DNA of 64,000 nucleotides from Marsupella aquatica. Lineage: Eukaryota; Plantae; Marchantiophyta. The translations under genes were made by a program, and so were the position numbers. This document shows positions 1-59,205 of this stretch, piece after piece. Position 1 is the first letter of the stretch. Each line of letters opens with the position of its first letter. The DNA lies in NCBI GenBank assembly GCA_973895155.1, contig OZ316895.1, positions 14,824,816-14,888,815 of the forward strand, written 5' to 3'. The notes below the pieces were generated by a model. The model ran no database searches, was not told the DNA's origin, and worked only from the letters and a program-made list of their open reading frames with translations.

Positions 1-1824
1 ATGTTGAATGTGAAGACAAGTCTGATTGTTGACACTGTACTGAATGCTAAGCCTCCTCTAAATCAATTCTGAGACGGGACTGAATGTTGAGATTGATGTT
101 AGGTTTGCCTGTGGTCGGAACACTCTGCGAAACATTTCAATATATATGCATCCGAGTTCCCAATAAGTAATAACAGCCATCGTTGTCTAAAGTGGGCCTC
201 TGGTAGTATTGTGCATCGGGGGCACTCAATAGGAAACTCATAGTTGCTTTTACCAACAACAGAAGCTGCATTTTTGAAGAAATTCCATGGACTTCATTGC
301 TTGCGCAGTTTGTGACATAAAATGTCCAATTAGATGTCGGAATGAAGACATGATCTCTAACTGTCTTGCACTGTATGTCCTTTGAACTGCATTCTTAGAT
401 AGCCCAAATAGTGGAATTCCAAGTGGGACAGTTCACAATCCACAGAGTTGAACCCATTCTGAAATAGAATATAATTCTGAAATAAAATATTTTCATTCAG
501 AGAGTCATAAAGTCAAAACTAGTTCATTTTAACTTTGGCCACTGTCTAGCATGAAAGTCTGTAATGCATATACATATTCGATACCTTCATGTTTGTTTCA
601 TGCATACATTCTTGGCAGTGACTGATGTATTCAACCTGGAATGTAATATTTTGGCTTCGATTGGCTCCTCTATTTTGCTAGCTTCTCAATGTCTGCTCAT
701 AACATTTTTTGAGAACATAGGTATAGACAGAACAGAGTAATTGGGAATTCAGATCATATTGTTGTATGCTTTGTTGGGGATCCTCTTGTGTATGTGCAGG
801 CATACACATTCTACCTGAGGGCAGTATGCCTGTACACCTCAAGTAGAACCAAGTACGATCTGTCGCTTGATATAATTCCACTACACTTCTATATTAATGT
901 TGCCTAAGTGCTTTATTGTTTTTTTTTGGTTGAAATGATGTTACTTGCATTTCATAGTCAATCTTAGTTGGTTGGCTTGGTACTCATTTGCTTCACTCCC
1001 TGGGGCTAGTGAATTTGTTTGCTGTCACTGAGTTTCTTGCGTAAGAACTACATGTTGTTTATTTTCTCGATCCATGCTCTGTTTTGCTCTCTTTCCTCTG
1101 TTTTGCTGGCTTCTTCATGTCTGCTCATAACATTTTTCAGATTGTGTAGTTATGGATAGAACATAGTAATTGGGATCATACTGTCTTCTGCTCTGTTGGG
1201 GATCCTCTTTGAATATATACTTGGTCACATGTATTGAGCTTGGAGGCAGTTTTTTCATTCCCATCTTCATTTTGTCAAGTGACCTTTCTGCCACCCGCCT
1301 CTTTTTTAGGAAGCTCCTTATTGTGTACACAATCTGTACTTTGGTTATGAAGTTTGACTGAGTGCTGCGGGCCACTTCCTGTGCCGACCTGTGCTGTAAT
1401 TTGCTTTGTTTTGCATCCACTGTTTAGTTTCCTTCTATTTTATCGACGAGTTTCATGCATATCATGTTTATAAGAGCTTTTGTGCTGATGCACAATATAG
1501 TTGTGCCAACTGAATGCCAGTCTGCCTACACTCCTACTCAGTCACTCTTGCAAGCAGTGAACTACCTCTCTGTTGCTCACTACAGGCAGAGACTTTCAGT
1601 GTTTCTGGATATTGTACGTAGTTTGCAACATTGTTGATTAGGAGTGTTTCATGCTAAGTTTATACTATGACCTCTAGTTGGAATCAAGGGAATGACACAG
1701 TGAGTGGGAACTGATAAGTTCAGGTTGGTTGTTGTTGGTGAGGCAAGTACAGCTCCTGCTCACCTTGCTGATCAAAGGACGTCAGAGGACGTGAACACAA
1801 GACATCTGAACAAAAGCAACAGTT

Positions 1825-2274
1825 ATGGTGAGCACCCGCAATGCTGAACATGTGCGGCTTGCACGCAAGGCAGAGAGGTTGTGCCTTGAGTATGTGAGAC
1901 TTGGGATCCTTCCTGCCCAGTCTGCATGGTACTTTGAGTACCCTATTGTTGCCAGGAATAACTACAGTCGGCCTGTACCTGCTTCTCTACCCTTCCCAAC
2001 ATCCTTGGTATTTCTGTCTCTTGTACATGACCCGCCACAAATTAGGGCCCAAGGGTGTGTACACAGCTGCCAATATGACTGTCCTGCCTGTCGGGCTTCT
2101 GGCCCAAAGTTGGATGACCGTTCTCTTGGGTGTCGATTTTTGCATAGAGCACAATGTATCATCTGGAACCACTCGCCATCCTGCAGTGTGCCTGGCGATG
2201 TCACTTGTCCTGGCCTCCCAGACCCCACCACCGGTGCGTTTGGTGTCTACACATGTTTGGATCACACGCTGTAG
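1825..2274 (+). CDS. CACTA cargo ORF-X, 149 aa Cys/His-rich protein of unknown function (copy A)
   Basis: ATG-started ORF (MVSTRNAEH...CVHSCQYDCPAC...), open in both copies, same strand as other cargo; no family recognised. Confidence 0.4.
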   Translation: MVSTRNAEHVRLARKAERLCLEYVRLGILPAQSAWYFEYPIVARNNYSRPVPASLPFPTSLVFLSLVHDPPQIRAQGCVHSCQYDCPACRASGPKLDDRSLGCRFLHRAQCIIWNHSPSCSVPGDVTCPGLPDPTTGAFGVYTCLDHTL

Positions 2275-3024
2275 AGGAGCACTTGTCACACCGTATGCAC
2301 AGACCAGAGTGCAATGACCTATAACTTAATGCTCTGACTTAAGCACCGCGGATAATTATTTAAAATTTTGAAGTTTGAGCAATTTTGGGTGCAGGGTTTA
2401 GGATCCATAGTATATAACTTATCCTAATTTGGCTGCACTAAGTGGAATATCCTAATGTAAGAATTAAGCAAGCTCTCTTTAAATTCTCCAATGAAAGACT
2501 GCTTGAATGACTGCTTTAACTTGGCCAACATTGTAACATTATATGACAGAATTTATGGGCCATGTCATAACCTGCAAACATCCCATACAATCACGTATTC
2601 AAACTTATTTGTCTCACTATCATAGCCTATATAGGATGTATAAAGTACAACCCTCATCACACTACTTCATCCCAATCTTGTTGGAAAAATGCTTGTTTTT
2701 CATGTGATGACTATTGTATGTGATTCAAATGCATGAAATGTTGTTGCAGATCTTTTTTGGTGAATCATAGCCACGAAATTGAGGTGCTGGTGGAGCAATT
2801 GTACTAGGAGATCAGTTTTGTGTGTGGGCTCAACATACCAAAAGTATGTCTGCCCTGCATCCTTGTGTGGCCATTGCAATTCATTGCAGTATAAGTTGCC
2901 GTTGTACCTTAAATGCTAAATTTTACTTTCTGTGAAGTCTGCTAGAATATATTGTCTGTCAAGTCTGCCAAAATGTATTGCCTGTATTGTCTACTTAATT
3001 GTACTGTCTGTCTCATGCGTAGGC

Positions 3025-3705
3025 ATGGCACGCCCCAAAATTCCAACGAAAAAGCGTGTGATAGAGGTGAGCAACACAGGTGTACCTGGGCCACACGTTA
3101 CTAACTTCTCTGCAAGTCAGATTTTCCAGAAGGCAGCTCATTGTTGTGCCATTTGTGACGATGGTGGGAGCTTGGTCATCTGTGAGGGCCCTTGCATAAG
3201 GCATTTCCACCTCAACCCGGAGTCTCACCTTGTTGCAGAAAACAATTGTCTAGGGGTGGGCCTCCCGTCAACACACCAGGGAGACTGGATGTGCACTGAT
3301 TGTCTGGAGAAGCAAGCTAAGTGTGCACAGTGTGGGAAGTTGGGGTCCTATGAGGGCTCTGTTGATGCTGCACCGGATGTTAGGAAATGTCCAGACCGTT
3401 TTTGTGTGAGGTTTTTCTGTTTTGAGTGTTTGCCTGTTCATGCCACAGCTTGCCCACTTCATAGGTGCAAGGCATGTGGTGAGCATAATGATGAGTACTG
3501 GGCTGACATAGTCCACAGTGCTAGGTGTCCCAATATGTGGCACTATCATTGCTTGAAAGATCGTCAAGCAGAGGGTTATGCTTGTGACAGAGAAATCTAT
3601 GATCACTCTGCACATGGTGTTGATTGATGGATATTTTATTGTCATTGCCATGCCATTGATCCTACCTTGCGCACTCCTATGAGAGATCACATATCTTGGC
3701 TGTGA
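3025..3705 (+). pseudogene. EDM2-like composite PHD-finger module, copy A (premature TGA at 3625-3627)
   Basis: CAICDDGG..CEGPC.RHFH..WMCTDC..CAQCGKLGS..CPLHRC..ARCP..WHYHCL..IFYCH.HAIDP..RTP.RDH. Copy B has CGA at the stop position. Confidence 0.8.
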
Positions 3706-4301
3706 AGCTGAACATTGTACATGCACAGGGCACCTGATGTGGGTGTACTATTTTTTGGGGATTGCAGAGATTCCAATTTTGAAAAGGAGTTGGGTAGGCA
3801 AGTTTGTATAGGCAGCACTTATCCTATGCTATAGCATTAGTGGCTGGGTACATGCCTATAAAAACTTATCCTAACAAGCCTTCTTGGAAGTATTTAGGCT
3901 GAGTGGTCATTTTCACAAACACTCTCATCAGACTGCTAAATTAAAACAGGACTTCAAAGTTGTAAGCATATAAATTATCAGGCATGCAATTAATCAAATT
4001 GCCCTATAAGTTTGTCATTGAATGTATCCTCCTTTACAACAAAATATGTATGTGCGGCCATGACAAGTTGGTTGCACTTCATTTCACCTTTGATATGGAT
4101 TTCCTAGTATATACTCAAACAATGTCCTGCATCGATGCAGGTGCCTAGTACTTATTGTTCATATATCCCCTGTACCTATCAAAATTGGACTTGAGCAACA
4201 GTGGACCGGATCAACTTAAAAAGCAGGAATTTTGGTGTCCTTCTATTGGCAGGTGAACCCACTCTTCCAATATTCACTCTGATCACGTAGGGTGTGTGTA
4301 C

Positions 4302-5174
4302 ATGGAGCCTGGGAAACGTAGAAAGTGTGACCACCCAGCAGTGTTTACAGGGGTCAGAGCCATTTTGGTCCATGGCCAGCATGGGTTGACCAAAGTGCAT
4401 TGGCCAACTATACAGAAACAATTCTCTGAGCTCCATGGCACTATAGTGCAGGACATCACTCTAGAGACTACACATGTTGTTGCAGGGACATGGCTATCAG
4501 TGATAAAGAAATGGTCATGGTCCTACATGAATTCTGCAATTACTGAGCGAGACCTAAAAGTAGTTGAGGCCTCTTGGATCACAGATTCCATAGCACATCA
4601 GATTGTACAGGATACTGAGCAATATGAACTGTGGGAGGATGAAGAAGCTATTGCATCAGCTTGGGCTGAACAAGAAGTCTGGGAAGCAAAGGCACGGCTT
4701 GCTGATGTCCAATATGGACCTGTACTCAACAAAGGACAAAGCTCAAGAAGGCTGAAGAGTATGTTGGCTGAGGAGATGAAGCAACCAACCCCCATTCTGA
4801 AAGGGCTGAGCATGGTTTTTGTGGAGGCGGGAATTGGAGAGGTTAAGTGCAAAGTGTACAAGTCCACAGTGCTTGACCTAGGTGGGATAGTGGAGGAGAA
4901 TATAACAGAGGACACCACTCATGTCATTACTAAGTCATATCCCAAAGCCTGCCGCAAGTTTGGGAAGGGTGACATTCGCTTTTATGTCATGTCCCATAAT
5001 GTGTTTGTGGTTTCATATGCTTGGCTTGTGGAATCAATAGCAGCTGGGAAGCGTAAAAACCCAATGGACTATGATCTTTTTTAGGCCTGGCCACGGAAGG
5101 GTCAGGATCCTCACAATGAAAACTATGTGACAACAAGTGAGGAAGAGGTTATTAGCGATTCTGAATCAGAGTGA
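4302..5174 (+). pseudogene. Tandem-BRCT protein (Pol lambda-type BRCT x2), copy A; TAG at 5082 removes only the acidic tail
   Basis: Two BRCT repeats (VFTGV..TTHVV..VVEASWITDSI; ILKGL..TTHVI..VVSYAWLVESI). Copy B reads GAG at 5082 and continues to ...SDSESE. Confidence 0.8.
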
Positions 5175-5265
5175 GGAATACGTAGTAGCATCAGTTTTGA
5201 GACAAGCTTTGTGTACAAATCACATCTTTGAAATAAATGTGATATTTGAACTAACGTAGCTTGTT

Positions 5266-5867
5266 ATGGTTGGTCGCAGTTGGACTTATTTTACTGTTGG
5301 CGGATTGTGGTTTCTTGCTGGGCCTGGGGGTGTCACTGTAAACTTACTGGGTGGGCTCAAATCTTGGCGGTAGACTTTGGTGGGTATGTTGCCTTTCCTA
5401 CATCAACAGGCGCTATGTAGGCTCCTCCTCTGGGTTGCCACATGGCTGGCCATTGTTTGGACTCTCCTGCATGGGTTGGTGTTGAAACATATTTCAACAC
5501 CGCCTGAGGATGCAAGAGACGATGAATCTTATTTTTGAGCAGATGAAATTGAAGAGCAGAATGTTGTGGGGACTTCCTTGTTGCCTGGTTTGCCAGATGA
5601 TATAATGCTGTCGGATGTGTGGCCCAGAATTCTTCTGTGGTCAACCGCACAAGACATTTGTAATATAGACTAATTAGCACACAATGGAGGGACTTGGTAG
5701 CTAGCTCCCCCCAGTGGAGGGCATTAGAACCACTTCTTGTAGGCACAGATCGAACCCCACCCTGGTATGCCCAGGGCATACTCCTTGATGACCTGATGTA
5801 CATGCCAGTGTACCTCAGGTGTGACTACCATCGAGAACAGGGTGGGTATCCAGATGAACTCTGGTAA
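5266..5867 (+). pseudogene. F-box protein, copy A (stops and 1-bp frameshift)
   Basis: Homologous to the open ORF 57043-57645; LLPGLPDDIM motif; TAG near 5371, TGA near 5536, 1-bp deletion near 5662. Confidence 0.65.
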
Positions 5868-6254
5868 TAACGTGAGGAGATCTCATACTGCTCTCACACC
5901 AGGCACGTTTGTCTATGACTATAGGTGATTGGACTCTGATATGGTCATGGATGTACGTGCTTGGTTGGCCATTGCAGACTAAGGCAGTATAAGTGAGGAC
6001 AGCGAAGGAGGTGACACCCTGAGACAGTTAGGAATTTTGTTACAGTGTGACCTGAGAATAGATACACGATTCAGGAACCTTTCTTGTTTTTGTTGGTGGT
6101 TGTAGAAAGTCTATGCATGATTTATTACACTGTATCATGTCATATGTTTTGGTAGATAGTGTGAACATCGGAACACAACTAAACAAGAAATGTATTTTCC
6201 ACTTTCATAATGAAATGACAATTAAATCTGAGTGCCTGTGTTTTGAACTCTAAG

Positions 6255-9200
6255 ATGGAGTCTAGAAGAGTGTCCGTAGGTCACCCTCCCCCTTGAACCC
6301 ATCCAACATTTGCCAGGTTGCATCTACATCATCCAATGAGGGTTTCCCAACACGACCAGAAGCTCTGGAATTGGGAACAGGCCAAAGTGGCACGGTCAGG
6401 TCCAAGTTCACGAATGAGATGTCCTTGCACTCAATGCAATGGCTCCCACACCAGAGTCTTGAGGCAGATTCATGGGCACTTGGCAATTCATGGGAGACAC
6501 CCTCGTTGGCGTGTTACAAACGATCCGAATGAGGCTGATTCTTCAGATGAGGAATGGAGGGCTGACTTTGAGAATGCAAATAGTGCAAGGCGAGACCAGT
6601 TCTTCACTGGTGGGTTGGCAGATGTGATGACTCAACTGGGTGGGTCCGAAGTCCTTCAGCAGCCTGCAGACGAAGGGATCAATGTTCAGCAAATGGTGCA
6701 GGATATTTTCCAGGATATTTATGCAATGCGGGAGGACATGGAAGATGCAGAAGAGTTTGAGACCCCACCGGGTGATGACCACGAGTCTTCAGATGAGTTT
6801 GAGATTGGGCAACAGGCTATAGTTGGAGAGGACACCATGTTTGGCTCCCCAACCGAAGTTCAGGAGGCCTTCAATCCGCTGTTCCCAGGAAGCAATTGTT
6901 CCAAATTAGCATTTGTGCTAATGTTTCTAAATATTTGTGGGAACCACAATGTGCCAAACATCTTTGTGTCCGAGGTTCTGGCCTTCTTGCAGAAAACAGT
7001 GCTACCAGGAGGTAATCTAGTGCCAAAAACATGTACGAGGCAAAGAGACTGATATCAAAACTTGGGCTGAACTATGAGTCAATACATGTCTGTCCTGATG
7101 GGCATGTTCTTTTCAGAAACGAACATTAGAAGAAGTTGACATGCCCTACATGTGGGAAGCACAGGTACCGGAACAATGGGAAGTCCAAGCAACCTGCAAA
7201 AGTACTCCGTCACTTTCCTATAATTCCCAGACTACAGCGAATGTTCAGGAGCCGTGCCATATCAGAGTTGATGACATGGACAGCTAAGAACAAAAGTCGA
7301 GATGGGCTACAACGCCATGCTGGAGATTCAAAGCAATGGAAGTTGATTGATGATGTGTATCCTGAGTTTGCTAGGGAGACAAGGAATGTTAGGCTTGGGT
7401 TATCATTGGATGGGGTGAACCCATTTGGCGAGAAGAACAATGCGTACTCTTGTTGGCCTGTAACCCTTTTGAATTACAACCTTCCCCCATGGTTGACTAC
7501 AAAGCGGTTCTTTGTAATGTTGGCATTGTTGATTCCAGGGCCAGACAGTGCTGTTGCAGCCAATATAGATGTGTATCTTGCTCCTCTAGTAGAGGAACTG
7601 AGAAAGCTATGGTACACTGGAGTGCTCACATATGATATGCTGCAGAGGATTGGTGAAGCCAATCCATTCTTGCTTAGAGCTATTGTAATGTTGACTATTG
7701 CAGATTACCCTGCCCATAGCATGATTGCAGGCCAGGTTGGGAAAGGATATTTAGCTTGCACAAGATGTGGCCCCCATGTGACAAGTGACTATTCAAAGTC
7801 CTTGAAGTGTATCAAATACCTTGGTCACCGTCGATTTCTGCCCTCTGATCACCCCTACAGACGTAGACCCAATCTTATAGCACATTTTAACAAGCGCACA
7901 GAGCTCCGCAGTCCCCCACCTTGAGTGAAGAAGGAGCAAATAAGTTCTTGGGGGGCTGCCAAGGCACAGTATGATGCAGATGGAGGAGCAGAGGATGGAG
8001 TACGAGATCCTGCAAGGTTGTATGGTGTGAAACGATAGTCCATTTTGGACTTGCAGCTGGAGTATTGGCGAGTAATCTCCTCTCCCCAACAACCCATATA
8101 TGTGATTCAGTCAATTTAGTTGTTAGATTGTATGAAGTAGTATGTATGTATTATGAAGATTGAGATTTGCTCACTGCTTGATGTTTTGGAGTTGCAGGAG
8201 TTTGATCCAAACAAACATAATATTGATGTTATGCACATAGAGAAGAACATATGCGAGAGTCTACTCTGATTTTTGAGTGGAGAAAAGGACATGGGCTCTG
8301 TACGTATGGATCTACAGGACAGGGGAATTCGACCCCACCTTTGGCTTACAACACACCAGAGCAGGGAAAATGTGTTTTTGAAGTACCAAGCACCATATTG
8401 TTGCACAGACACAGAGTGGCAGACCTTCTTATCAAGGCTGAGTTCACTCCGAGCTCCTACAGATTATGCTAGTGCATTCAAGAGGCATGTGAAGGATAAC
8501 AAATTTGGTAGAATGAAAACCCATGACTACCATGTCATGATGCAACAAGTCCTGCCATTGTGCCTGAGGGGCCTCATGCAAGAGCCTGTGCGTAAAGTTA
8601 TACTGCGTCTGAGTGATGTGTTCCATAGAGTTTGTGTGAAGGTGTGGGATGCTGCACAGTTTCCCCAATTGAAGAAAGATGTGGCACTATTGTTGTGTGA
8701 TCTTGAAATATATTTCCCGCCTGCATTCTTTGATGTAATGACTCATCTGCTCATCCATGTCGTGGAAGAAATAGACCAGTACGGGCCGGTGATAGCACGC
8801 TGGTTGTACCCCCTGGAGCGGTACATGAAGTTGATGAAGGGTCATGTGCGATCTTACTATAGGCCAGAGGCAAGTATGGCTCGGGGTTATATAAAAGATG
8901 AAACTCTGGGCTACATCACAGAGTACCTAGCAGATTACGAGCATGTGACAAGGCGAGTATGGAATTCTGATGAAGAAGAAGGGGTGTCTGGGGAAGTCCT
9001 ATAAGGTGCTGCAACCACAGTGAAGCTGACCATCAAAATTAGAGACTTGGCTCATCAGTACGTTCTAGAAAACACTGATGCAATGCAACCCTGGCTGGAG
9101 TGAGTACCTACTTTGGTCTCCTTGTATGTAACTTGTTTTCAATTTTCTTTGCTACCCTTGGTTTCTAAATTTCAGACATGTATAAAATGTGTACTCTGAT

Positions 9201-9994
9201 TGCTAAATCCATGCACTTGTATGTGTAGAGAGTACGAGGCACAAAAGGCTATTCAATCAAGCACGTCTGCCACATTCCCATGCATGTCAGAATGGCTGAG
9301 ATGCACAGTTTGAGAGCATCATGCAAGCCATCCTAATATGGATGCAGATGTCTATCTCTTGTCCAATCCTCCACGGTTGCTGGTAAAGTCTTACAAACGG
9401 ATGGCAGCATATGGCAATCACTATAGAGTGAGAGATGAAACAACTTCTTCCAGGGTAACATATGATTGCAGGCTCATTTGTGTATTTCAGCATGAGAGCC
9501 CTGATGAAAGTAGAGGAGTGTTGCAGATGGGGTATGTAGGAGAACTACGTGATATCTGGCTTCTTGACTATGGAGCCACATCCACTCCTGTAATTTTGAT
9601 GAAGGGTGAATGGGTAAGACAAGTGTGGCATGGTAACAGGGCCAGTATGAAAAGAGACCGGGATGGCTTTCTGCTTGCCAATTTCAAGTCCAAGTTGCCC
9701 GAATGGGAGCAGCCTTTTGTGTATCCCAGTCAGGTGGAGCAGGCCTTCTTCTTGGATGTGGAAGAGAACCCAGGTTGGAGGGTAGTGTGTCATAAGCAGT
9801 CCAGAAATCGTAGGGTAGAAGGGTCAAAGCTAGAGTTCCATTTAGATAGACATAGTGCATTTGAACAACCACATACTGGAGACGTTGCTACTGTTCAGAC
9901 AAGCACAGAGTATGTTCCTCTAACACGGGTGGATGCTTGGGAGGGTGAGGAGCCATTTGTAGAGGCTGAGCCTGACACCATGCGTATGCAATAA
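6255..9994 (+). pseudogene. CACTA TnpD/Tnp2-type transposase (Transposase_21, DUF4218, DUF4216-like regions), copy A, disrupted
   Basis: Motifs CPCxxC, RNVRLGLSLDGVNPF, YNLPPW, ADYPA, DVMHIEKN, FPPAFFDVMTHLLIH, WLYPLERYM, EQPFVYPSQVEQAFF. Predicted GT-AG introns 8072-8197 and 9100-9228. Stops at 6294, 7127, 7922, 8036, 8267, 9002, 9311 and a frameshift near 7030. Confidence 0.92.
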
Positions 9995-10012
9995 TGTTTG
10001 TCATTGAATAGG

Positions 10013-13000
10013 ATGGAAGAAGATGATGATGAGATGAGTGAGTCTGAAAAGCAAGCCATGATACGTGCAGCATATGTTGATGAGAGGTTGGCAGCTTTGG
10101 GAGCTGAGCTCAGACAGGGATTTTCTGCTTTGTAAGGGAACAATTATCATCCACAGAACCTATCCAGACTTTGCTCATTAATTGGAATGAATGTAGCTAT
10201 GTTTACTAGAGTTGTTCAATGGATGTTGCTTTTGGATGGCATGCAGGCTCCCAGACAGGAGAAGTGTAGTGCAGAAAAGGGCTAGGCAAAGCATCAGTGA
10301 CAGTGCAAGTGGACCTCAGCGACGCAGTGAGAGACTAGCAGTGAAGGACATTCCATCGATGGCAGATTCTACAGATGATGGGCAAAATGTTGGGTCCAGT
10401 GAAAACCATAAGGAATTTGATGATGTAGAGTACTATCCAGAGGAGGAGCCCGATGCAGATGATGAAGAATATGGGCAGGGCAAGCATAATGTCATGGAGC
10501 CCAGCAAAATTGTGGTAATGAAGTGTTGAAGTAGTGTATCACAGTAGTGATCTGTTTGGCTCATGTGAGTGTGGCAAGTCAGAGGAAGATACTTCTTTTA
10601 GGTTTATTGTCCTTGCACATATGTTCTTGCAGGCTAAGAGAGGTGGACTTGCTGCTCGGGGTATGGGCCGTGGGCACAGTACAACAACATCTGGAGGGCG
10701 AAGCACAGTGCATTACATTGCACGTTGGTCCGGACCAATGGGGCGTGCTGGGCACATACCACCTCCACCTCCAGGTAAAACCCAACAGAGCAGTGGGTAT
10801 GGAACAACAACTGTTGGTGTAGGTGGTCACACTGTTGTGTATGGAGCTGCACCACATGGTGGGCACATCCCACCCTCCTTTGCAAGTAGAGCAACAACAC
10901 ATACCCACAACACAGGTGCAGGTCAGGTTAGAGCAACCCCACGCAGCGAGGGGTACACTGTGGTGTATGGCGCACCACCAACACACAGGGCACCCTCTCA
11001 GGGGAGAGCAGCCCCACAAGTGGATGGGTATGGGCCACCACCACCTGCTGGGCACACTGTTGTGTATGTTACGGGTCCACCACCACCACACATTACACGG
11101 GGCCAAGGTAGACCAACACAACATACTGAGCAGTATGGAGCAACAGGAGACGATTGGAGATGTGAGTAGGGATTGCCCTTCAATTCTGGCATTTATGTAA
11201 ATTACTTTGGAAATATATAAAGGGTATGCTAGTGTGATGTTAAAGACCTAATTAAAGTGCTGAATTATGTGACTGCAGATTCTGTCCATCCTGATTGGGG
11301 AGTAACTGACAAGGAGGTTTACTATGAACCTGAAGTAGAGGCAGGACAAGGGACAACTGTAGCCTATGGTTCTGAGCAATGGCCAGAGCCTGATTGGTTG
11401 GCTGGTGGGGAAGATGTACAGGTAGTTGAGCCTGCCTCTTATCCACAGAGTGTCGGCAAAGCATCTGGTCACATGGCTCAGAGATGGGCATTCTGTGAAG
11501 ATGGTCACATTGCAAGTTAGATTGCAATTGGTATCCACTATTTGACATATACAAAGGTATTGATGTTACTATTGTATGATGTCACATGGATGTGGGATGA
11601 TGCAGGGGGCATTAGAAGTCCACTAAAGGGTAGTACAAAAGTTCTAGCGAATCCTAAACCTGTCACACCAAGTAGTACCACAGAAAGCAATGCAGGACCT
11701 GACAGAACCAAGAAAGGAGTAGTGGACATTGGGAGCAACCGTTGGGTGAACAGTGCATGTGCAGGGAAGAATCGTTGGTTGGCTGACTTGAAAGGTGAAA
11801 TATTGCGATGGCTGGATTTGAGTGTGGTGAATTTTGTGCAGCAGCATCGAGCGGATTGGCAACAAGTTGTTGACAATGTAGCCGCAAAATGGAAATATGT
11901 GGGCCATCCGGATGGAGTAGCCATGGAGTGTCTTCAGGCTCATGCAAAGACAATTCTGAAGAATGAGAGGTGGAGATTGCACGTATTGTTTCAAGAAGGT
12001 GGAGAGGACCAAAGAATGCCTGCTCCCCCATTGACAGATCCTCTTCAATGGAGCAAGCTAGTCCATCACTTCTTGAGTGAATCCGACAAGAGTAAGAGTT
12101 CCCAGCTGGCATATGCACCTGGCAACGTTCAGAACCTTAACTTGACAGGAAGGAAAGGGAATGCTCCGATAGTAGAGCAGTTGGTAAGAATAATCCTTGG
12201 ATTGGCAGACCTAGCTTCTACAGTGTATTTGAGTTTTTTTGTGTCCGAGAAAATAATGTGTGAAAATATGATGTATGCAGAAGGCACAAAATGGACAGTC
12301 CCCTACAAAAGAAGAGGTGAGAGCTGAAGCAAGAAAATAGAAGCAAAAATCTGACCAGAGTGATCCTTCAAACCAAGTGAGTACTCATACCAGATAGTGT
12401 TCTTTGAGGTCCACATTCCCTAGTTTGCATGAACAATGGGACCATATATTATTTACCAGATGTAATGGATTGACTCTGTTGGACATATGTGTTTGCAGGG
12501 AGGTGGATCATGTTCTCTTAGCAATTTATCAGATTGTGTGAAATGTATGGAGTCTCATGAGAATGATGTGACCGTGAAATTGAGTGAAATGGCAAGTGAG
12601 TTGACTGCTTTAAAGGAAGATGTTCATAAGCTTATTCGTGTGCAAGAAGACCAATACAAATGTATAATGAATGCAATATGGAATGGAGGTTCTAGAGACC
12701 TGCCACATTACTCCAATTTGATGAATCCAGAGGGTAACATTGAACAGCAAATGGAGATGGAGCCCATAGAAAGGGATGTGGAGGGTACCATGGCCCCAGC
12801 AATGGAAGGTAAGGTTTCTCATATGTTTCCATGATTGGAGATGAGGCAAAAAATGTGTTTTGTTATATGTTTCCATGATTGGAGATGAGGCAAAAAATGT
12901 GTTTTGTTATATGTTTCCATGATTGGAGATAAGGCAAAAATGCTGATAGGCTGTTGACTTGCTATTTTGTTATTGCAGAGGTTACCAATGTACTGAATAC

Positions 13001-13529
13001 CCCCAGTTTGGATTCATATGAAGAGTTCATAGAAGTTGCCAAAGCCGGTGAGAATGGATGCGACACGGAGGGCCAGGTGGAGATCCAAATTCCATCACAG
13101 CCAGGTGACATACAGGGTGTGACCACAGACGGTGGAGTAGAAGTAGAGCTTTCAGCTGCTGGGAGACCTATTCGGAAGGTGAAGAGTCGGGCCAGGGCAA
13201 GTGGTAGAGTGGCAGCGGCAAAGAAGCGTAAAGCTGATGCAGAATTGAAAACTCAGGCACATCCTGAGTATGTATTGTTCTCACCACAGCAAAATGAGTT
13301 GTGTGTAGGGTATGGAAAATTGCGCCCTGAGCATATTACATTCCATTGCAAAGAAGTACCAACAGGGTATTCTGTAGTGTTGTTGACAAAGCTTGTGAAG
13401 CCAAAGACCCCTTTACCAGTTCCTAATTTGAATGATGACCCGCCACAGACAATTATTGCAGATGCTCTGAACTCTTTGGTGTTGTGGCCAACAGATTACA
13501 TAGGGACACCTGAAATGTGTGGTTTGTAG
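10013..13529 (+). pseudogene. CACTA TnpA-like multi-exon gene (Transposase_24-like core, Tnp1/En/Spm-like C-terminus), copy A
   Basis: WSKLVHHFLSE..SKS..TGRKGNAPIVEQL core (11590-12183); C-terminal VGYG..FHCKEVP..PLPVP..IADALNSLVLWP (12980-13529); several GT-AG bounded segments; in-frame TAG at 12338 (CAG in copy B). Exon structure approximate. Confidence 0.75.
12820..12940. repeat. Intronic tandem repeat (~44-bp unit ATATGTTTCCATGATTGGAGATGAGGCAAAAAATGTGTTTTGTT), one unit more than in copy B
   Basis: Direct reading; copy B counterpart at about 50000-50075. Confidence 0.85.
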
Positions 13530-13789
13530 TTTTAGCCTAAACTTAGAAACAACTGCATGATTGGTGCCAAATGTTACCTAGATATTTCATAATGCAGAGT
13601 TGAATTGAGATTCACTGGATCATTCACTGGATCATCCACTGTTTGTATGAAATTATGCATGTATGTTCAATAGTTAATATGAGTTCTAAGATTCGAATAG
13701 AACTATGTTGTCTCTCATGTTTTCATGTAAGACTTGTGTACTTGTATGCTTGAGTGCTTGAATGTATGCTTGTATGCTTGAGTTGACTA

Positions 13790-14425
13790 TTAGTCATGTT
13801 TCTAGTGCTATGTGCAGGTTGCAATTGCCTTAGGTCGAGTCTAAATTTTGACCAAAAGGGTCAAAGAATGCAGTCGTGAACTAGACTAATGAGTCATTTT
13901 GGGTCATTAAGATATGACCGTGATATATTACATCGTGGTCCCCAATAAGACCAACCAGTCTAGCCCAATCTTAAGATTTTTCAGGATGATTAGTCATCTG
14001 TAGTCATCATCTGTCACTAATGTGCCCATACACTCTAAACTTTTAAGACCAACTAGTCATAATCAGTCGTCTGTGTTCCATTATTGAACCATAGCACCAG
14101 TCATATATGCGAAAGGAAACTCTTCCTCACTGACTGTTTGTGACTAATTCATACCTCATTTTGAGTCATACAAATGACTACTTTGCAGTCATTTGTAAGA
14201 CTACACCTGCTCCAAATCCCAAAATGCCCAAGTACGGATTTGGTCATTATTAGTCACAAAATGTGTCTTAAACCCTAGTCACATAGTTGACCACTCGATT
14301 TCAGTCACTTTAAATAAGACGCTATGTCAAAATTACGACTGGCTTGATACCCCCCAAACTTTAGTCACAAGGAGTCATGGGCAGTCATAAAACTTAGTCA
14401 TAAAACACCCCGGTTTCTACTAGTG
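13790..14425. repeat. CACTA 3' terminus with dense subterminal AGTCA/TGACT motifs (copy A)
   Basis: Many (T/C)AGTCA and TGACT motifs in both orientations leading to TACTAGTG; typical TnpA-binding subterminal array. Confidence 0.8.
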
Positions 14426-18617: not shown

Positions 18618-18630
18618 AACTCCCCCTTGA
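18618..18630 (-). other. Polypurine tract
   Basis: Minus strand TCAAGGGGGAGTT directly before the 3' LTR. Confidence 0.85.
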
Positions 18631-24737: not shown

Positions 24738-24749
24738 GCTCTGATACCA
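24738..24749 (-). other. Primer-binding site, initiator tRNA-Met
   Basis: Minus strand TGGTATCAGAGC, 2 nt after the 5' LTR. Confidence 0.92.
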
Positions 24750-47661: not shown

Positions 47662-49413
47662 TCTTTCAGCACTTCTTCTCAAGAGTAGTAAAATACTAGA
47701 GAGATCCATGACTGCGCTTGACTATGTTTTCTCCCAACATTTTTGTCTACTCCCTTCTCTCAACAGTAGCAAAGTACTCGTGAGATCCATGATTGCTCCT
47801 GATTATGTTGTTTCCAAGACATCCAGCTACATTGGAAGTTGTAATTTATCTTTGGACTATTCCTTCTGACAGATTCTTTAGCTATAGTGACTTCTTCACA
47901 CCTTTTCTTTGGCAACTGTCGTAGCTTTCTTGCTTGTTATTTTCTACCAATTATTTACTGCTCTGGAGCATCTATTGGAGTGCCTTCTGCACAAAGCAAT
48001 ATTTTGTCAGTTTTTTCACACGGGCTCCACCAATATGGCACGAGGACCACAGGTATGACACAGGATTCGCTTGGCTTGAACAAAGTATTTCCTAATTATT
48101 TCTTACTCCTTCTTTCTGTATAGTGCTAGCCTGAAATTAATGTACTTCTCCCCGTTACCGCCGCGGTTCAATGGTAGCAAAAACGTACAACAAGAATCAT
48201 TTTTTTTGGAAAATTTGATTCACCCTGGGGACGGGGGCTGAATGACGACCTCAGGGATGTATTGCAATCTGTGTCCACTGCTCTTTAATTTCAGTTGATG
48301 GTCTACCTCTGTTTGCTTGACCAGCTTATATGAGGCACCGCTTGGAAAAAAAATCCCCTCAATATTAAGGGTCTTCCTGATCTAGTGGCACTTGAGGTGT
48401 GACTCTGGATTTTCTCACATATATAAGAGATTATTATCAGTCTTAATATTTCACACTTGACCTGATTCTTACTTATTGTGTTATGATTTATCGTTTATTT
48501 GTATCCCATGCCATATGCTAATGATACCTAGTCTAATTGATCTGTCCAGTCACTAGTAGAAACCGGGGTGTTTTATGACTAAAGTTTGGGGGGTATCAAG
48601 CCAGTCGTAATTTTGACATAGCGTCTTATTTAAAGTGACTGAAATCGAGTGGTCAGCTATGTGACTAGGGTTTAAGACACATTTTGTGACTAATAACGAC
48701 CAAATCCGTACTTGGGCATTTTGGGATTTGGAGAAGGTGTAGTCTTACAAATGACTGCAAAGTAGTCATTTGTATGACTCAAAATGAGGTATGAATTAGT
48801 CACAAACAGTCAGTGAGGAAGAGTTTCCTTTTGCATATATGACTGGTGCTATGGTTCAATAATGGAACACAGGCGACTGATTATGACTAGTTGGTCTTAA
48901 AAGTTTAGAGTGTATGGGCACATTAGTGACAGATGATGACTACAGATGACCAATCATCCTGAAAAATCTTAAGATTGGGCTAGACTGGTTGGTCTTATTG
49001 GGGACCACGATGTAATATATCACGGTCATATCTTAATGACCCAAAATGACTCATTAGTCTAGTTCACGACTGCATTCTTTGACCCTTTTGGTCAAAATTT
49101 AGACTCGACCTAAGGCAATTGCAGCCTGCACATAGCACTAGAAACATGACTAATAGTCAACTCAAGCATACAAACATACATTCAAGCACTCAAGCATACA
49201 AGTACACAAGTCTTACATGAAAACATGAGAGACAACATAGTTCTATTCGAATCTTAGAACTCATATTAACTATTGAACATACATGCATAATTTCATACAA
49301 ACTGTGGATGATCCAGTGAATGATCCAGTGAATCTCAATTCAACTCTGCATTATGAAATATCTAGGTAACATTTGGCACCAATCATGCAGTTGTTTCTAA
49401 GTTTAGGCTAAAA

Positions 49414-52400
49414 CTACAAACCACACATTTCAGGTGTCCCTATGTAATTTGTTGGCCACAACACCAAAGAGTTCAGAGCATCTGCAATAATTGTCTGTGG
49501 CGGGTCATCATTCAAATTAGGAACTGGTAAAGGGGTCTTTGGCTTCACAAGCTTTGTCAACAACACTACAGAATACCCTGTTGGTACTTCTTTGCAATGA
49601 AATGTAATCTGCTCAGGGCGCAATTTTCCATACCCTACACACAACTCATTTTGCTGTGGTGAGAACAATACATACTCAGGATGTGCCTGAGTTTTCAATT
49701 CTGCATCAGCTTTACGCTTCTTTGCCGCTGCCACTCTACCACTTGCCCTGGCCCGACTCTTCACCTTCCGAATAGGTCTCCCAGCAGCTGAAAGCTCTAC
49801 TTCTACTCCACCGTCTGTGGTCACACCCTGTATGTCACCTGGCTGTGATGGAATTTGGATCTCCACCTGGCCCTCCGTTTCGCATCCATTCTCACCGGCT
49901 TTGGCAACTTCTATGAACTCTTCATATGAATCCAAACTGGGGGTATTCAGTACATTGGTAACCTCTGCAATAACAAAATAGCAAGTCAACAGCCTATCAG
50001 CATTTTTGCCTTATCTCCAATCATGGAAACATATAACAAAACACATTTTTTGCCTCATCTCCAATCATGGAAACATGATGAGAAACCTCACCTTCCATTG
50101 CTGGGGCCATGGTACCCTCCACATCCCTTTCTATGGGCTCCACCTCCATTTGCTGTTCAATGTTACCCTCTGGATTCATCAAATTGGAGTAATGTGGCAG
50201 GTCTCTAGAACCTCCATTCCATATTGCATTCATTATACATTTGTATTGGTCTTCTTGCACACGAATAAGCTTCTAAACATCTTTCTTTAAAGCAGTCAAC
50301 TCACTTGCCATTTCACTCAATTTCACGGTCACATCATTCTCATGAGACTCCATACATTTCACACGATCTGATAAATTGCTAAGAGAACATGATCCACCTC
50401 CCTGCAAACACATATGTCCAACAGAGTCAATCCATTACACCTGGTAAATAATATATGGTCCCATTGTTCATGCAAACTAGGGAATGTGGACCTCAAAGAA
50501 CACTATCTGGTATGAGTACTCACTTGGTTTGAAGGATCACTCTGGCCAGATTTTTGCTTCTGTTTTCTTGCTTCAGCTCTCACCTCTTCTTTTGTAGGGG
50601 ACTGTCCATTTTGTGCCTTCTGCATACATCATATTTTCACACATTATTTGCTCGGACACAAAAAAACTCAAATACACTGTAGAAGCTAGGTCTGCCAATC
50701 CAACGATTATTCTTACCAGCTGCTCTACTATCGGAGCATTCCCTTTCCTTCCTGTCAAGTTAAGGTTCTGAACGTTGCCACGTGCATATGCCATCTGGGA
50801 ACTCTTACTCTTGCCGGATTCACTCAAGAAGTGATGGACTAGCTTGCTCCATTGAAGAGGATCTGTCAATGGGGGAGCAGGCATTCTTTGGTCCTCTCCA
50901 CCTTCTTGAAACAATACGTGCAATCTCCACCTCTCATTCTTCAGAATTGTCTTCGCATGAGCCTGAAGACACTCCATGGCTACTCCATCCGGATGGCCCA
51001 CATATTTCCATTTTGCGGCTACATTGTCAACAACTTGTTGCCAATCCGCTCGATGCTGCTGCACAAAATTCACCACACTCAAATCCAGCCATCGCAATAT
51101 TTCACCTTTCAAGTCAGCCAACCAACGATTCTTCCCTGCACATGCACTGTTCACCCAACGGTTGCTCCCAATGTCCACTACTCCTTTCTTGGTTCTGTCA
51201 GGTCCTGCATTGCTTTCTGTGGTACTACTTGGTGTGACAGGTTTAGGATTCGCTAGAACTTTTGTACTACCCTTTAGTGGACTTCTAATGCCCCCTGCAT
51301 CATCCCACATCCATGTGACATCATACAATAGTAACATCAATACCTTTGTATATGTCAAATAGTGGATACCAATTGCAATCTAACTTGCAATGTGACCATC
51401 TTCACAGAATGCCCATCTCCAAGCCATGTGACCAACTTACCAGATGCTTTGCCGACACTCTGTGGATAAGAGGTAGGCTCAACTACCTGTACATCTTCCC
51501 CACCAGCCAACCAATCAGGCTCTGGCCATTGCTCAGAACCATAGGCTACAGTTGTCCCTTGTCCTGCCTCTACTTCAGGTTCATAGTAAACCTCCTTGTC
51601 AGTTACTCCCCAATCAGGATGGACAGAATCTGCAGTCACATAATTCAGCACTTTAATTAGGTCTTTAACATCACACTAGCATACCCTTTATATATTTCCA
51701 AAGTAATTTACATAAATGCCAGAATTGAAGGGCAATCTCTATTCACATCTCCAATCGTCTCCTGTTGCTCCATATTGCTCAGTATGTTGTGTTGGTCTAC
51801 CTTGGCCCCGTGTAATGTGTGGTGGTGGTGGACCTGTAACATACACAACAGTGTGCCCAGCAGGTGGTGGTGGCCCATACCCATCCACTTGTGGGGCTGC
51901 TCTCCCCTGAGAGGGTGCACTGTGTGTTGGTGGTGCGCCATACACCACAGTGTACCCCTCGCTGCGTGGGGTTGCTCTAACCTGACCTGCACCTGTGCTG
52001 TGGGTATGTGTTGTTGCTCTACTTGCAAAGGAGGGTGGGATGTGCCCACCATGTGGTGCAGCTCCATACACAACAGTGTGACCACCTACACCAACAGTTG
52101 TTGTTCCATACCCACTGCTCTATTGGGTTTTACCTGGAGGTGGAGGTGGTATGTGCCCATCACGCCCCATTGGTCCGGACCCACGTGCAATGTAATGCAC
52201 TGTGCTTCGCCCTCCAGATGTTGTTGTACTGTGCCCACGGCCCATACCCCAAGCAGCAAGTCCACCTCTCTTAGCCTGCAAGAACATATGTGCAAGGACA
52301 ATAAACCTAAAAGAAGTATCTTCCTTTGACTTGCCACACTCACATGAGCCAAACATATCACTACTGTGATACACTACTTCAACACTTCATTACCACAATT

Positions 52401-52895
52401 TTGTTGGGCTCCACGACATTATGCTTGCCCTGCACATATTCTTCATCATCTGCATCGGGCTCCTCCTCTGGATAGTACTCTACATCATCAAATTCCTTAT
52501 GGTTTTCACCAGACCCAACATCTTGCCCATCATCTGCAGAATCTGCCATCGATGGAATGTCCTTCACTGCTAGTCTCTCACTACGTCGCCGAGGTCCACT
52601 TGCACTGTCACTGATGCTTTGCCTAGCCCTTTTCTGCACTACACTTCTCCTGTCTGGGAGCCTGCATGCCATCCAAAAGCAACATCCATTGAACAACTCT
52701 AGTAAACATAGCTACATTCATTCCAATTAATGAGCAAAGTCTGGATAGGTTCTGTGGATGATAATTGTTCCCTTACAAAGCGGAAAATCCCTGTCTGAGC
52801 TCAGCTCCCAAATCTGCCAGCCTCTCATCAACATATGCTGCACATATCATGGCTTGCTTTTCAGACTCACTCATCTCATCATCATCTTCTTCCAT
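49414..52895 (-). pseudogene. TnpA-like gene, copy B
   Basis: Mirror of 10013-13529; in-frame TAG near 50275 and another in the Gly/Pro-rich exon near 52121. Confidence 0.75.
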
Positions 52896-52913
52896 CCTAT
52901 TCAATGACAAACA

Positions 52914-55900
52914 TTATTGCATACGCATGGTGTCAGGCTCAGCCTCTACAAATGGCTCCTCACCCTCCCAAGCATCCACCCGTGTTAGAGGAACATACTC
53001 TGTGCTTGTCTGAACAGTACCAACGTCTCCAGTACGTGGTTGTTCAAATGCACTATGTCTATCTAGATGGAACTCTAGCTTTGACCCTTCTACCCTACGA
53101 TTTCTGGGCTGCTTATGACACACTACCCTCCAACCTGGGTTCTCTTCCACATCCAAGAAGAAGGCCTGCTCCACCTGACTGGGATACACAAAAGGCTGCT
53201 CCCATTCGGGCAACTTGGACTTGAAATTGGCAAGCAGAAAGCCATCCCGGTCTCTTTTCATACTGGCCCTGTTACCACGCCACACTTGTCTTACCCATTC
53301 ACCCTTCATCAAAATTACAGGAGTGGATGTGGCTCCATAGTCAAGAAGCCAGATATCACTTAGTTCTCCTACATACCCCATCTGCAACACTCCTCTACTT
53401 TCATCAGGGCTCTCATGCTGAAATACACAAATGAGCCCGCAATCATATGTTACCCTGGAAGAAGTTGTTTCATCTCTCACTCTATAGTGATTGCCATATG
53501 CTGCCATCCGTTTGTAAGACTTTACCAGCAACCGTGGAGGATTGGACAGGAGATAGACATCTGCATCCATATTAGGATGGCTTACATGATGCTCTCGAAC
53601 TGTGCATCTCAGCCATTCTGACATGCATGGGAATGTGACAGACGTGCTTGATTGAATAGCCTTTTGTGCCTCGTACTCTCTACACATACAAGTGCATGGA
53701 TTTAGCAATCAGAGTACACATTTTATACATGTCTGAAATTTAGAAACCAAGGGTAGCAAAGAAAATTGAAAACAAGTTACATACAGGGAGACCAAAGTAG
53801 GTACTCACTCCAGCCAGGGTTGCATTGCATCAGTGTTTTCTAGAACGTACTGATGAGCCAAGTCTCTAATTTCGATGGTCAGCTTCACTGTGGTTGCAGC
53901 ACCTTGTAGGACTTCCCCAGACACCCCTTCTTCTTCATCAGAATTCCATACTCGCCTTGTCACATGCTCGTAATCTGCTAGGTACTCTGTGATGTAGCCC
54001 AGAGTTTCATCTTTTATATAACCCCGAGCCATACTTGCCTCTGGCCTATAGTAAGATCGCACATGACCCTTCATCAACTTCATGTACCGCTCCAGGGGGT
54101 ACAACCAGCGTGCTGTCACCGGCCCGTACTGGTCTATTTCTTCCACGACATGGATGAGCAGATGAGTCATTACATCAAAGAATGTAGGCGGGAAATATAT
54201 TTCAAGATCACAAAACAATAGTGCCACATCTTTCTTCAATTGGGGAAACTGTGCAGCATCCCACACCTTCACACAAACTCTGCGGAACACATCACTCAGA
54301 CGCAGTATAACTTTACGCACAGGCTCTTGCATGAGGCCCCTCAGGCACAATGGCAGGACTTGTTGCATCATGACATGGTAGTCATGGGTTTCATTCTACC
54401 AAATTGGAATTTGTTATCCTTCACATGCCTCTTGAATGCACTAGCATGATCTGTAGGAGCTCGGAGTGAACTTAGCCTTGTAAGAAGGTCTGCCACTCTG
54501 TGTCTGTGCAACAATATGGTGCTTGGTACTTCAAAAACACATTTGCCCTGCTCTGGTGTGTTGTAAGCCAAAGGTGGGGTCGAATTCCCCTGTCCTGTAG
54601 ATCCATACGTACAGAGCCCGTGTCCTTTTCTCCACTCAAAAATTGGAGTAGACTCGCGCATATGTTCTTCTCTATGTGCATAACATCAATATTATGTTTG
54701 TTTGGATCAAACTCCTGCAACTCCAAAACATCAAGCAGTGAGCAAATCTCAATCTTCATAATACATACATACTACTTCATACAATCTAAACTAAATTGAC
54801 TGAATCACATATATGGGTTGTTGGGGAGAGGAGATTACTCGCCAATACTCTAGCTGCATGTCCAAAATGGACTGTCGTTTCACACCATACAACCTTGCAG
54901 GATCTCGTACTCCATCCTCTGCTCCTCCATCTGCATCATACTGTGCCTTGGCAGCCCCCCAAGAACTTATTTTCTCCTTCTTCACTCGAGGTGGGGGACT
55001 GCGGAGCTCCGTGCGCTTGTTAAAATGTGCTATAAGATTGGGTCTACGTCTGTAGGGGTGATCAGAGGGCAGAAATCGACGGTGACCAAGGTATTTGATA
55101 CACTTGAAGGACTTTGAATAGTCACTTGTCACATGGGGGCCACATCTTGTGCAAGCTAAATATCCTTTCCCAACCTGGCCTGCAATCATGCTATGGGCAG
55201 GGTAATCTGCAATAGTCAACATTACAATAGCTCTAAGCAAGAATGGATTGGCTTCACCAATCCTCTACAGCATATCATATGTGAGCACTCCAGTGTACCA
55301 TAGCTTTCTCAGTTCCTCTACTAGAGGAGCAAGATAGACATCTATATTGGCTGCAACAGCACTGTCTGGCCCTGGAATCAACAATGCCAACATTACAAAG
55401 AACCGCTTTGTAGTCAACCATGGGGGAAGGTTGTAATTCAAAAGGGTTACATGCCAACAAGAGTACGCATTGTTCTTCTCACCAAATGGGTTCACCCCAT
55501 CCAATGATAACCCAAGCCTAACATTCCTTGTCTCCCTAGCAAACTCAGGATACACATCATCAATCAACTTCCATTGCTTTGAATCTCCAGCATGGCGTTG
55601 TAGCCCATCTCGACTTTTGTTCTTAGCTGTCCATGTCATCAACTCTGATATGGCACGGCTCCTGAACATTCGCTGCAGTCTGAGAATTATAGGAAAGTGA
55701 CGGAGTACTTTTGCAGGTTGCTTGGACTTCCCATTGTTCCGGTACCTGTGCTTCCCACATGTAGGGCATGTCAACTTCTTCTGATGTTCGTTTCTGAAAA
55801 GAACATGCCCATCAGGACAGACATGTATTGACTCATAGTTCAGCCCAAGTTTTGATATCAGTCTCTTTGCCTCGTACATGTTTTTTGGCACTAGATTACC

Positions 55901-56655
55901 TCCTGGTAGCACTGTTTTCTGCAAGAAGGCCAGAACCTCAGACACAAAGATGTTTGGCACATTGTGGTTCCCACAAATATTCAGAAACATTAGCACAAAT
56001 GCTAATTTGGAACACTTGCTTCCTGGGAACAGCGGATTGAAGGCCTCCTGAACTTCGGTTGGGGAGCCAAACATGGTGTCCTCTCCAGCTGTACCTGTTG
56101 CCCAATCTCAAACTCATCTGAAGACTCGTGGTCATCACCCGGTGCGGTCTCAAACTCTTCTGCATCTTCCATGTCCTCCCGCATTGCATCCATATCCTGG
56201 AAAATATCCTGCACCATTTGCTGAACATTGATCCCTTCGTCTGCAGGCTGCTGAAGGACTTCAGACCCACCCAGTTGAGTCATCACATCTGCCAACCCAC
56301 CAGTGAAGAACTGGTCTCGCCTTGCACTATTTGCATTCTCAAAGTCAGCCCTCCATTCCTCATATGAAGAATCAGCCTCATTCGGATCGTTTGTAACACG
56401 CCAACGAGGGTGTCTCCCATGAATTGCCAAGTGCCCATGAATCTGCCTCAAGACTCTGGTGTGGGAGCCATTGCATTGAGTGCAAGGACATCTCATTCGT
56501 GAACTTGGACCTGACCGTGCCACTTTGGCCTATTCCCCATTCCAGAGCTTCTGGTCGTGTTGGGAAACCCTCATTGGATGATGTAGAGGCAACCTGGCAG
56601 ATGTTGGATGGGTCCAAGGGGGAGGGTGACCTACAGACACTCTTCTAGACTCCAT
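52914..56655 (-). pseudogene. TnpD/Tnp2 transposase, copy B, disrupted
   Basis: Mirror of 6255-9994; its own stops (~56531, 55265) and frameshifts (~56095, ~54480, ~54388). Confidence 0.92.
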
Positions 56656-57042
56656 CTTAGAGTTCAGAACACAGGCACTCAGATTTAATTGTCATTTCAT
56701 TATGAAAGTGGAAAATACATTTCTTGTTTAGTTGTGTTCCGATGTTCACACTATCTACCAAAACATATGACATGATATAGTGTAATAAATCATGCATAGA
56801 CTTTCTACAACCACCAACAAAAACAAGAAAGGTTCCTGAATCGTGTACCTATTCTCAGGTCACACTGTAACAAAATTCCTAACTGTCTCAGGGTGTCACC
56901 TCCTTCGCTGTCCTCACTTATACTGCCTCAGTCTGCAATGGCCAACCAAGCACGTACATCCATGACCATATCAGAGTCCAATCACCTATAGTCATAGACA
57001 AACGTGCCTGGTGTGAGAGCAGTATGAGATCTCCTCACATTA

Positions 57043-57645: not shown

Positions 57646-57736
57646 AACAAGCTACGTTAGTTCAAATATCACATTTATTTCAAAGATGTGATTTGTACAC
57701 AAAGCTTGTCTCAAAACTGATGCTACTACGTACTCC

Positions 57737-58609: not shown

Positions 58610-59205
58610 GTACACACACCCTACGTGATCAGAGTGAATATTGGAAGAGTGGGTTCACCTGCCAATAAAAGGACACCAAAATTCCTGCTTTTTAAGTTGA
58701 TCCGGTCCACTGTTGCTCAAGTCCAATTTTGATAGGTACAGGGGATATGTGAACAATAAGTACTAGGCACCTGCACCGATGCAGGACATTGTTTGAGTAT
58801 ATACCAGGAAATCCATATCAAAGGTGAAATGAAGTGCAACCAACTTGTCATGGCCGCACATACATATTTTGTTGTAAAGGAGGATACATTCAATGACAAA
58901 CTTATAGGGCAATTTGATTAATTGCATGCCTGATAATTCATATGCTTACAACTTTGAAGTCCTGTTTTAATTTAGCAGTCTGATGAGAGTGTTTGTGAAA
59001 ATGACCACTCAGCCTAAATACTTCCAAGAAGGCTTGTTAGGATAAGTTTTTATAGGCATGTACCCAGCCACTGATGCTATAGCATAGGATAAGTGCTGCC
59101 TATACAAACTTGCCTACCCAACTCCTTTTCAAAATTGGAATCTCTGCAATCCCCCAAAAATAGTACACCCACATCAGGTGCCCTGTGCATGTACAATATT
59201 CAGCT

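Follow-up and report, generated by a model that had tools for sequence, protein, structure and literature searches.

Several transposable elements of plants and fungi bring their own means against host silencing, or carry additional host-type domains. VANC of the VANDAL Mutator-like elements (MULEs) and TnpA of Spm are DNA-binding anti-silencers of flowering plants (PMC13547354; bioRxiv 10.64898/2026.08.24.746577), and TnpA activates Spm elements although methylation of histone H3 lysine 9 (H3K9) persists (bioRxiv 10.64898/2026.08.24.746577). Helitrons with ubiquitin-pathway domains are also on record (PMC11417382). On the host side, EDM2 binds dimethylated H3K9 (H3K9me2) by its PHD fingers; in concert with ASI1 and AIPP1, it promotes the use of distal polyadenylation sites beyond heterochromatic repeats (PMC7472560, PMC7529245, PMC10241880). 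We analysed a stretch of 64 kb from the liverwort Marsupella aquatica (contig OZ316895.1, positions 14,824,816 to 14,888,815), called the window below. It bears two copies of a large CACTA transposon with four accessory genes, named the cargo or the cassette: an open reading frame (ORF) called ORF-X, a PHD module, a BRCT pair and an F-box ORF. In our overall reading, to which we give even chances, this is a multi-copy plant CACTA whose four accessory genes ahead of the transposase are its own selected genes, which keep the element expressed and mobile in silenced chromatin.

The element and its cargo genes

The two copies showed 98.0% identity across 13,010 aligned bases and 97.9% across 1,095. 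They have a common terminus at 14425 and 48551, whose reverse complement starts CACTAGTAG; the DNA just beyond it is unrelated between copy 1 and copy 2, so they are likely separate insertions. The subterminal motif AGTCA was enriched in the final 600 bases (22 per kb, compared with 0.8 per kb elsewhere). A 3' CACTA terminus, subterminal repeats and TnpD/Tnp2 transposase domains, by which we assigned the element to CACTA, are all present. No 5' CACTA terminus was found within the 64-kb window for either copy, and a target-site duplication is thus outside the view. The upstream DNA of copy 2 is repetitive to the window edge, with GC and CpG content rising there.

On the same strand lie, in this order, ORF-X, the PHD module, the BRCT pair, the F-box, the transposase gene TnpD and a multi-exon TnpA-like ORF, and both insertions show a collinear and co-oriented cassette. 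A preliminary description of this DNA had claimed such an order on a single strand, and alignment, ORFs and Pfam bore it out in both copies. Its placing of the genes inside the CACTA terminus holds at the 3' side of both copies, while the 5' terminus lies beyond the window. The cargo had also been described as compact and intron-free, which is correct as far as the coding DNA of ORF-X, PHD and BRCT goes but less certain for the F-box, where the start codon is doubtful. All genes are recognisable in both copies, as had been stated, but neither copy has an intact set. TnpD matched Transposase_21 (E 1.7e-66) and DUF4218 above the Pfam cut-off, and Transpos_assoc and DUF4216 below it. The name TnpA, taken over from the same description, agrees with the position of a multi-exon ORF downstream of TnpD, but its exons gave no Pfam match.

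The PHD module matched PHD-1st_NSD in Pfam (E 3e-6). Among 17 candidates, four stand-alone homologues of 220-245 amino acids (aa) were identified, with 83, 74, 53 and 45% identity and a common end motif; a scan of 232 metagenome stretches gave none. In each of the four homologues, 25/25 zinc-ligand columns were identical, and in the most distant one the other columns agreed at only 64/167 (38%), compared with 25/25 for the ligands (p 5.5e-10). The PHD profile had 47 longer relatives, almost all of them EDM2-like by name or domains, at 26-34% identity and with liverworts first. The nearest host protein was about 33% identical in a compared set that leaves out the source species' own genes, and the nearest host relatives have 692-789 aa, compared with 226 aa in the element. 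An atypical PHD module and conserved zinc ligands, which mark the EDM2 family, are present. The full-length architecture of EDM2 is absent, as the 226-aa ORF stops with the module and has no methyltransferase-like domain. Judged by its sequence, the PHD gene of the element is EDM2-derived and is not an EDM2. Reading of heterochromatin had been proposed for this gene in general terms; it can now be put more sharply, since the PHD is of EDM2 type, a known H3K9me2 reader (PMC7529245, PMC7472560).

For the phylogeny we relied on a tree of five element and 20 host modules, taken from the 47 longer matches. An earlier tree with 29 of the 47, in which several host rows were incomplete, gave a similar split. 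The element PHDs and four short liverwort paralogues separated from canonical EDM2 with support of 99.9/99, and the element clade itself had 99.9/100, with its nearest sister unresolved in the tree. This phylogeny places the module together with a short EDM2 paralogue of liverworts. That paralogue (P0008-P0011) lacks a methyltransferase-like domain and carries its PHD module C-terminally; the gene id of its Marchantia form was not met in our literature search. P0004 also resembles the Calypogeia paralogue in the region upstream of finger 1. These likenesses make a liverwort the likely host of the element. The five element proteins have in common two derived deletions and one His-to-Cys swap.

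The first three residues of the element PHD also open 12 of the 47 longer EDM2-like proteins (P0008-P0013, P0015, P0017, P0018, P0022, P0028 and P0048), nearly all of which are from non-seed plants or algae, and in these 12 the start lies hundreds of residues from the PHD module. Donor start and PHD may have become fused in the element gene, or the N-terminal end may be conserved in its role. Because the same start occurs in these relatives, the N-terminal residues were probably inherited from the donor. The N-terminus also has what we take to be a likeness to histone H3; for the idea of an H3 mimic, complex prediction gave a score of 0.02.

The BRCT ORF has two domains which resemble one another, with a linker of about 55-60 residues (Pfam E 8e-12, two stretches). 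Two stand-alone homologues of 294-295 aa with 60 and 53% identity were found among 370 candidates, and none in 166 viral contigs. A donor family could not be assigned from the weak and mixed matches to RTT107, LIG4 and BRCA1 (E 1e-3 to 1e-2). Atlas scores were under 0.9, and the predicted model had a predicted local distance difference test (pLDDT) value of 38. Repeat 2 is presumably similar to the BRCT domain of plant DNA polymerase lambda. No catalytic domain was recognised in this ORF. The F-box matched Pfam in copy 2 only (E 1e-4, about 22.5-22.8 bits, narrowly over the cut-off of 20.5). In the approximately 45 residues past the F-box, no further Pfam family and no substrate domain were recognised. 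The preliminary description had suggested that the cargo engages non-homologous end joining (NHEJ) and targets host proteins for degradation; with no donor family for the BRCT pair and no substrate domain for the F-box, both are conjectural. Among the four cargo genes the F-box is the least supported as a selected gene, and no homologue search was made for it.

ORF-X belongs to a family of Cys- and His-containing proteins in which Cys and His residues are invariant among homologues. Seven stand-alone homologues of matching length (27-55% identity) were kept from 11 matches. The other four, three tandem-repeat proteins and one protein of 5,907 aa, were discarded. The metagenome matches, in 4 of 260 stretches, were attributed to chance, being weak, 25-49 residues long and in DNA unlike the element; viral contigs gave 0/43. 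ORF-X matched no Pfam family. Its predicted model (pLDDT 62) matched nothing in viral or PDB Foldseek searches (best VIA Z 4.0), and a homologue had no usable Atlas match. These structural nulls do not show a new fold. ORF-X is a conserved protein family without known match.

Copy number, selection and decay of the cargo

Four DNA-type sequencing runs, covering two organisms and two studies, contained the cargo; no RNA run was among them, which says nothing for or against expression. In run X4, a contig matching 9,250 flank bases exactly, with depth 22.5, served as the depth reference. Near-identical pieces had 6-11x the flank depth over upstream DNA, cargo, TnpD and TnpA, and a second depth class of 72-87x was found on the cassette and on TnpD patches. 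Run X3, from a different organism and study, likewise had two classes (2-6x and 57-102x). The abundant class covered the block from ORF-X to BRCT closely (91-98% match), and it covered the F-box region and TnpD patchily; its spacer DNA was 91-93% like copy 2. None of its listed contigs lay on TnpA or at the terminus, where missing cover is uninformative. By depth there would be about 10 close copies, and some 80 of a second CACTA family that shares most of the cassette, as far as summed contig depth, which is not copy number, can serve for this picture; it also speaks against two families that none of the listed contigs of the abundant class spans cassette and TnpD together. The close spacer with patchy TnpD suggests that the cassette block was exchanged between families. 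Restriction of the cargo to the two window copies had been named as a finding that would overturn the idea of a functional set; the depth classes and the stand-alone homologues elsewhere are at odds with such a restriction, and the cargo genes are probably not confined to these copies.

Both window copies are dead, with TnpD broken in each and broken cargo frames in addition. The CpG value of the cargo (0.28) is depleted like that of TnpD (0.33), compared with 0.56 in a host gene. The cargo frames are single-exon, and the neighbouring host gene has at least 10 exons. We consider that the cargo probably consists of long-held, selected element genes, as its sequence conservation indicates. The proposal of a functional toolkit, as opposed to passive fragments, is upheld in that the cargo behaves like long-resident selected genes, but not for the window copies themselves, which decay neutrally.

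Possible role of the cassette and rival explanations

The steps of the proposed role are given in order of falling confidence: PHD origin, read-through, F-box, BRCT and ORF-X. The PHD gene would derive from the short liverwort EDM2 paralogue. On the heterochromatin of the element itself, its product could attach to H3 tails and bring in host partners of the EDM2 pathway, after which RNA polymerase II would pass the poly(A) sites of the approximately 6 kb cargo and reach TnpD and TnpA. The F-box might serve as adaptor or decoy by docking on SKP1, the BRCT pair might tether host repair proteins where excision or insertion breaks occur, and ORF-X would be a probable zinc-binding partner. The putative SKP1 and repair roles are drawn from the domain names alone. 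Poly(A)-like signals are present in the cargo ahead of the transposase genes, so an own reader would profit the element; and because EDM2 is an H3K9me2 reader that favours transcripts of full length through heterochromatin, read-through is the likeliest role for the PHD. That it keeps the long element transcript intact under silencing seems to us a little less than an even prospect. As to the idea of one promoter with a splice acceptor for each cargo gene, the best sites, in a model trained on nine hand-picked sites, were not specifically beside start codons. The wider picture, an exchangeable module of four genes around a captured EDM2 reader, which would hijack heterochromatin read-through and SCF and repair adaptors, act against silencing through RNA processing and spread between liverwort CACTA families by recombination, is put forward only tentatively.

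The main rival to read-through is that the isolated PHD, F-box and BRCT modules are selected decoys, which act in trans by titrating away the silencing, SCF and repair complexes of the host. This would be matched with the trimming of every cargo to an interaction module (a PHD of 226 aa beside host proteins of 692-789 aa, and about 45 residues past the F-box), with a BRCT pair that has no catalytic domain, and with a PHD lacking the acidic stretch before finger 1. However, the PHD has kept its whole zinc framework and its C-terminal extension, which is compatible with either mode, and the known plant anti-silencers work on cognate copies (PMC10398659; bioRxiv 10.64898/2026.08.24.746577). We regard the decoy explanation as rather improbable. 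It is less probable still that the cassette forms a unit of its own, for instance a gene cluster serving the host or part of another mobile element, which sits in CACTAs by chance and is selected elsewhere. The history of its ORF-X to BRCT block does seem to be apart from that of TnpD, for the abundant set matches this block at 91-98% and TnpD only in patches, and the genomic context of the homologues is not visible. But contigs of equal depth lie on cassette and TnpD alike in two runs, cargo and TnpD are alike in their CpG loss, both insertions show the cassette collinear and co-oriented, and transposon families are known to exchange accessory genes passively in the case of TET/JBP (PMC12730594).

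Passive Pack-type capture of functionless host fragments appears the most unlikely of these explanations. Capture of gene fragments by CACTAs is known (PMC6379663; PMC2528002), and both window copies are broken and drift neutrally. Against it, the nearest host protein is only about 33% identical, five element PHD proteins have derived deletions in common with 25/25 ligand columns kept, the frames remain open with common ends at 45-60% identity, and coding DNA is better conserved than spacer. Nor does the cargo resemble a recent capture of this kind: homologues of matching length occur at 27-83% identity, and in the PHD the zinc ligands are kept.

Returning to the reading of selected genes which support the element in silenced chromatin, a number of points weigh against it. 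The cargo differences between copy 1 and copy 2 (nonsynonymous pN 0.021, 35/1,692 sites; synonymous pS 0.015, 7/474; pN/pS about 1.4; sums omit the out-of-frame rows TnpA_last and Fbox3) fit neutral decay, with no purifying selection seen. That the abundant class differed from copy 2 less in BRCT coding DNA (8/380 sites, 2.1%) than in the spacer (37/549 sites, 6.7%; p 0.001) speaks for selection, but just three X4 pieces of that depth, among the 32 shown of 7,594, went into the test. The distant homologues are nearly all on Logan contigs of 0.9-2.9 kb, too short-ranged for linkage, and none was placed beside a transposase. Run X4, having a contig exact over 9,250 flank bases, may be the window's own source. 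Conservation of Cys in ORF-X was significant in just 1 of 7 comparisons. The element PHD clade is on a long branch, and the H3K9me2 data are from Arabidopsis EDM2 and not from the liverwort paralogue. The element PHD is without the acidic stretch that precedes finger 1 in canonical EDM2, so its histone preference may differ, and with the rest of EDM2 missing it could be a decoy instead.

Window features and comparison with known systems

The features of the window are listed in Table 1. The FtsJ-type gene is presumably TRM7-like, and the spliced gene at 42290-45200 is assumed by us to be thiamine-phosphate-synthase-like. Directly beyond the 3' terminus of copy 1, at 14450-15000 (+), there are exon-like frames with splice-like borders.

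Table 1. Positions of the element genes and neighbouring features in the 64-kb window.
Feature	Position	Strand	Remarks
CACTA copy 1	1..14425	+	5' part beyond window
CACTA copy 2	48551..64000	-	aligned with copy 1 as far as 62626 at least; repetitive up to window edge
ORF-X, copy 1	1825..2274	+	149 aa, frame open
ORF-X, copy 2	60637..61086	-	frame open
EDM2-type PHD module, copy 1	3025..3705	+	226 aa; premature stop 3625
PHD module, copy 2	59206..59886	-	frame open; Pfam
BRCT pair, copy 1	4302..5174	+	290 aa, two domains, long linker, acidic tail; stop 5082
BRCT pair, copy 2	57737..58609	-	stop in repeat 1 near 58460
F-box ORF, copy 1	5386..5867	+	broken: stop 5536, frameshift near 5661; start codon uncertain
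F-box ORF, copy 2	57043..57525	-	open, 160 aa
TnpD transposase, copy 1	6255..9994	+	three inferred exons; several stops and frameshifts
TnpD, copy 2	52914..56655	-	broken; Pfam domains
TnpA-like gene, copy 1	10247..13529	+	multi-exon; named by position and structure only
TnpA-like gene, copy 2	49414..52661	-	by alignment with copy 1
Subterminal repeats and 3' CACTA terminus	13800..14425	+	motif cluster and terminus match
Copia-type long terminal repeat (LTR) retrotransposon	18274-25095	-	LTRs 98% identical, 5-bp target-site duplication, in-frame stops
PRP21/SF3A1-like splicing factor gene	30757-32994	-	long single frame; Surp and PRP21 domains (Pfam)
Inverted repeat	33582-34709		arms about 400 bases, 87% identity, internal short repeats; possibly miniature inverted-repeat transposable element (MITE) or foldback element
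Partial LTR, same Copia family	36072-36291		
FtsJ-type RNA methyltransferase gene	37660-40610	+	single-copy, at least 10 exons
Spliced single-copy gene	42290-45200	+	transit-peptide-like start; no Pfam match on pieces tried
Solo LTR, same Copia family	47316-47661		5-bp duplication; very high summed contig depth

The claim that no described CACTA combines PHD, BRCT and F-box was sustained, as none was found in the open literature (Repbase, subscription journals and supplements, where such families may be described, lay outside the search). The same literature yielded no BRCT-bearing CACTA transposase system and no EDM2-type PHD linking Marchantia and a transposon. If our reading is true, an EDM2 module carried by a transposon would open another route of anti-silencing, which exploits the tolerance of the host for intronic heterochromatin, and DNA transposons would be seen to retain a virus-like set of accessory genes. 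It also points to a little-studied liverwort EDM2 paralogue, and the question is accessible in Marchantia.

The element is like the CACTA-ULP and En-Spm families in its CACTA terminus, subterminal repeats, Tnp2 domains and large size, and whole CACTA-ULP families likewise bear an extra host-derived domain (PMC2528002). Unlike in those, four separate accessory ORFs are upstream of TnpD here, and a ULP1 domain was not found. Pack-CACTA also has host-derived sequence within CACTA ends (PMC6379663; PMC13317346), but is non-autonomous, while the present element carries TnpD (broken here) and a deeply diverged cargo with signs of selection. With EDM2 of the ASI1-AIPP1-EDM2 complex and with P0008-P0011, the element PHD shares a complete atypical PHD, a C-terminal extension and all zinc ligands, and with bryophyte EDM2-like proteins the identical first three residues. 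It differs from EDM2 in being a stand-alone protein of 220-245 aa that has two internal deletions and the His-to-Cys swap and lacks a methyltransferase-like domain.

Fungal EnSpm and other DNA transposons with TET/JBP have an epigenetic accessory gene which is swapped between families (PMC12730594), as may be the case here; those of fungi have one enzyme, whereas the plant element has four genes for non-catalytic adaptor modules. VANC of the VANDAL MULEs is an accessory gene from a host chromatin regulator, derived from MAIN-like proteins (PMC13547354), and is alike in this respect. As is expected of an anti-silencing factor, the gene encoded by the liverwort element is derived from a host chromatin factor. 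VANC and Spm TnpA bind DNA motifs and lower DNA methylation (PMC13547354; bioRxiv 10.64898/2026.08.24.746577), whereas the candidate of this element, known so far from sequence alone, would be a histone-reader module of an RNA-processing pathway.

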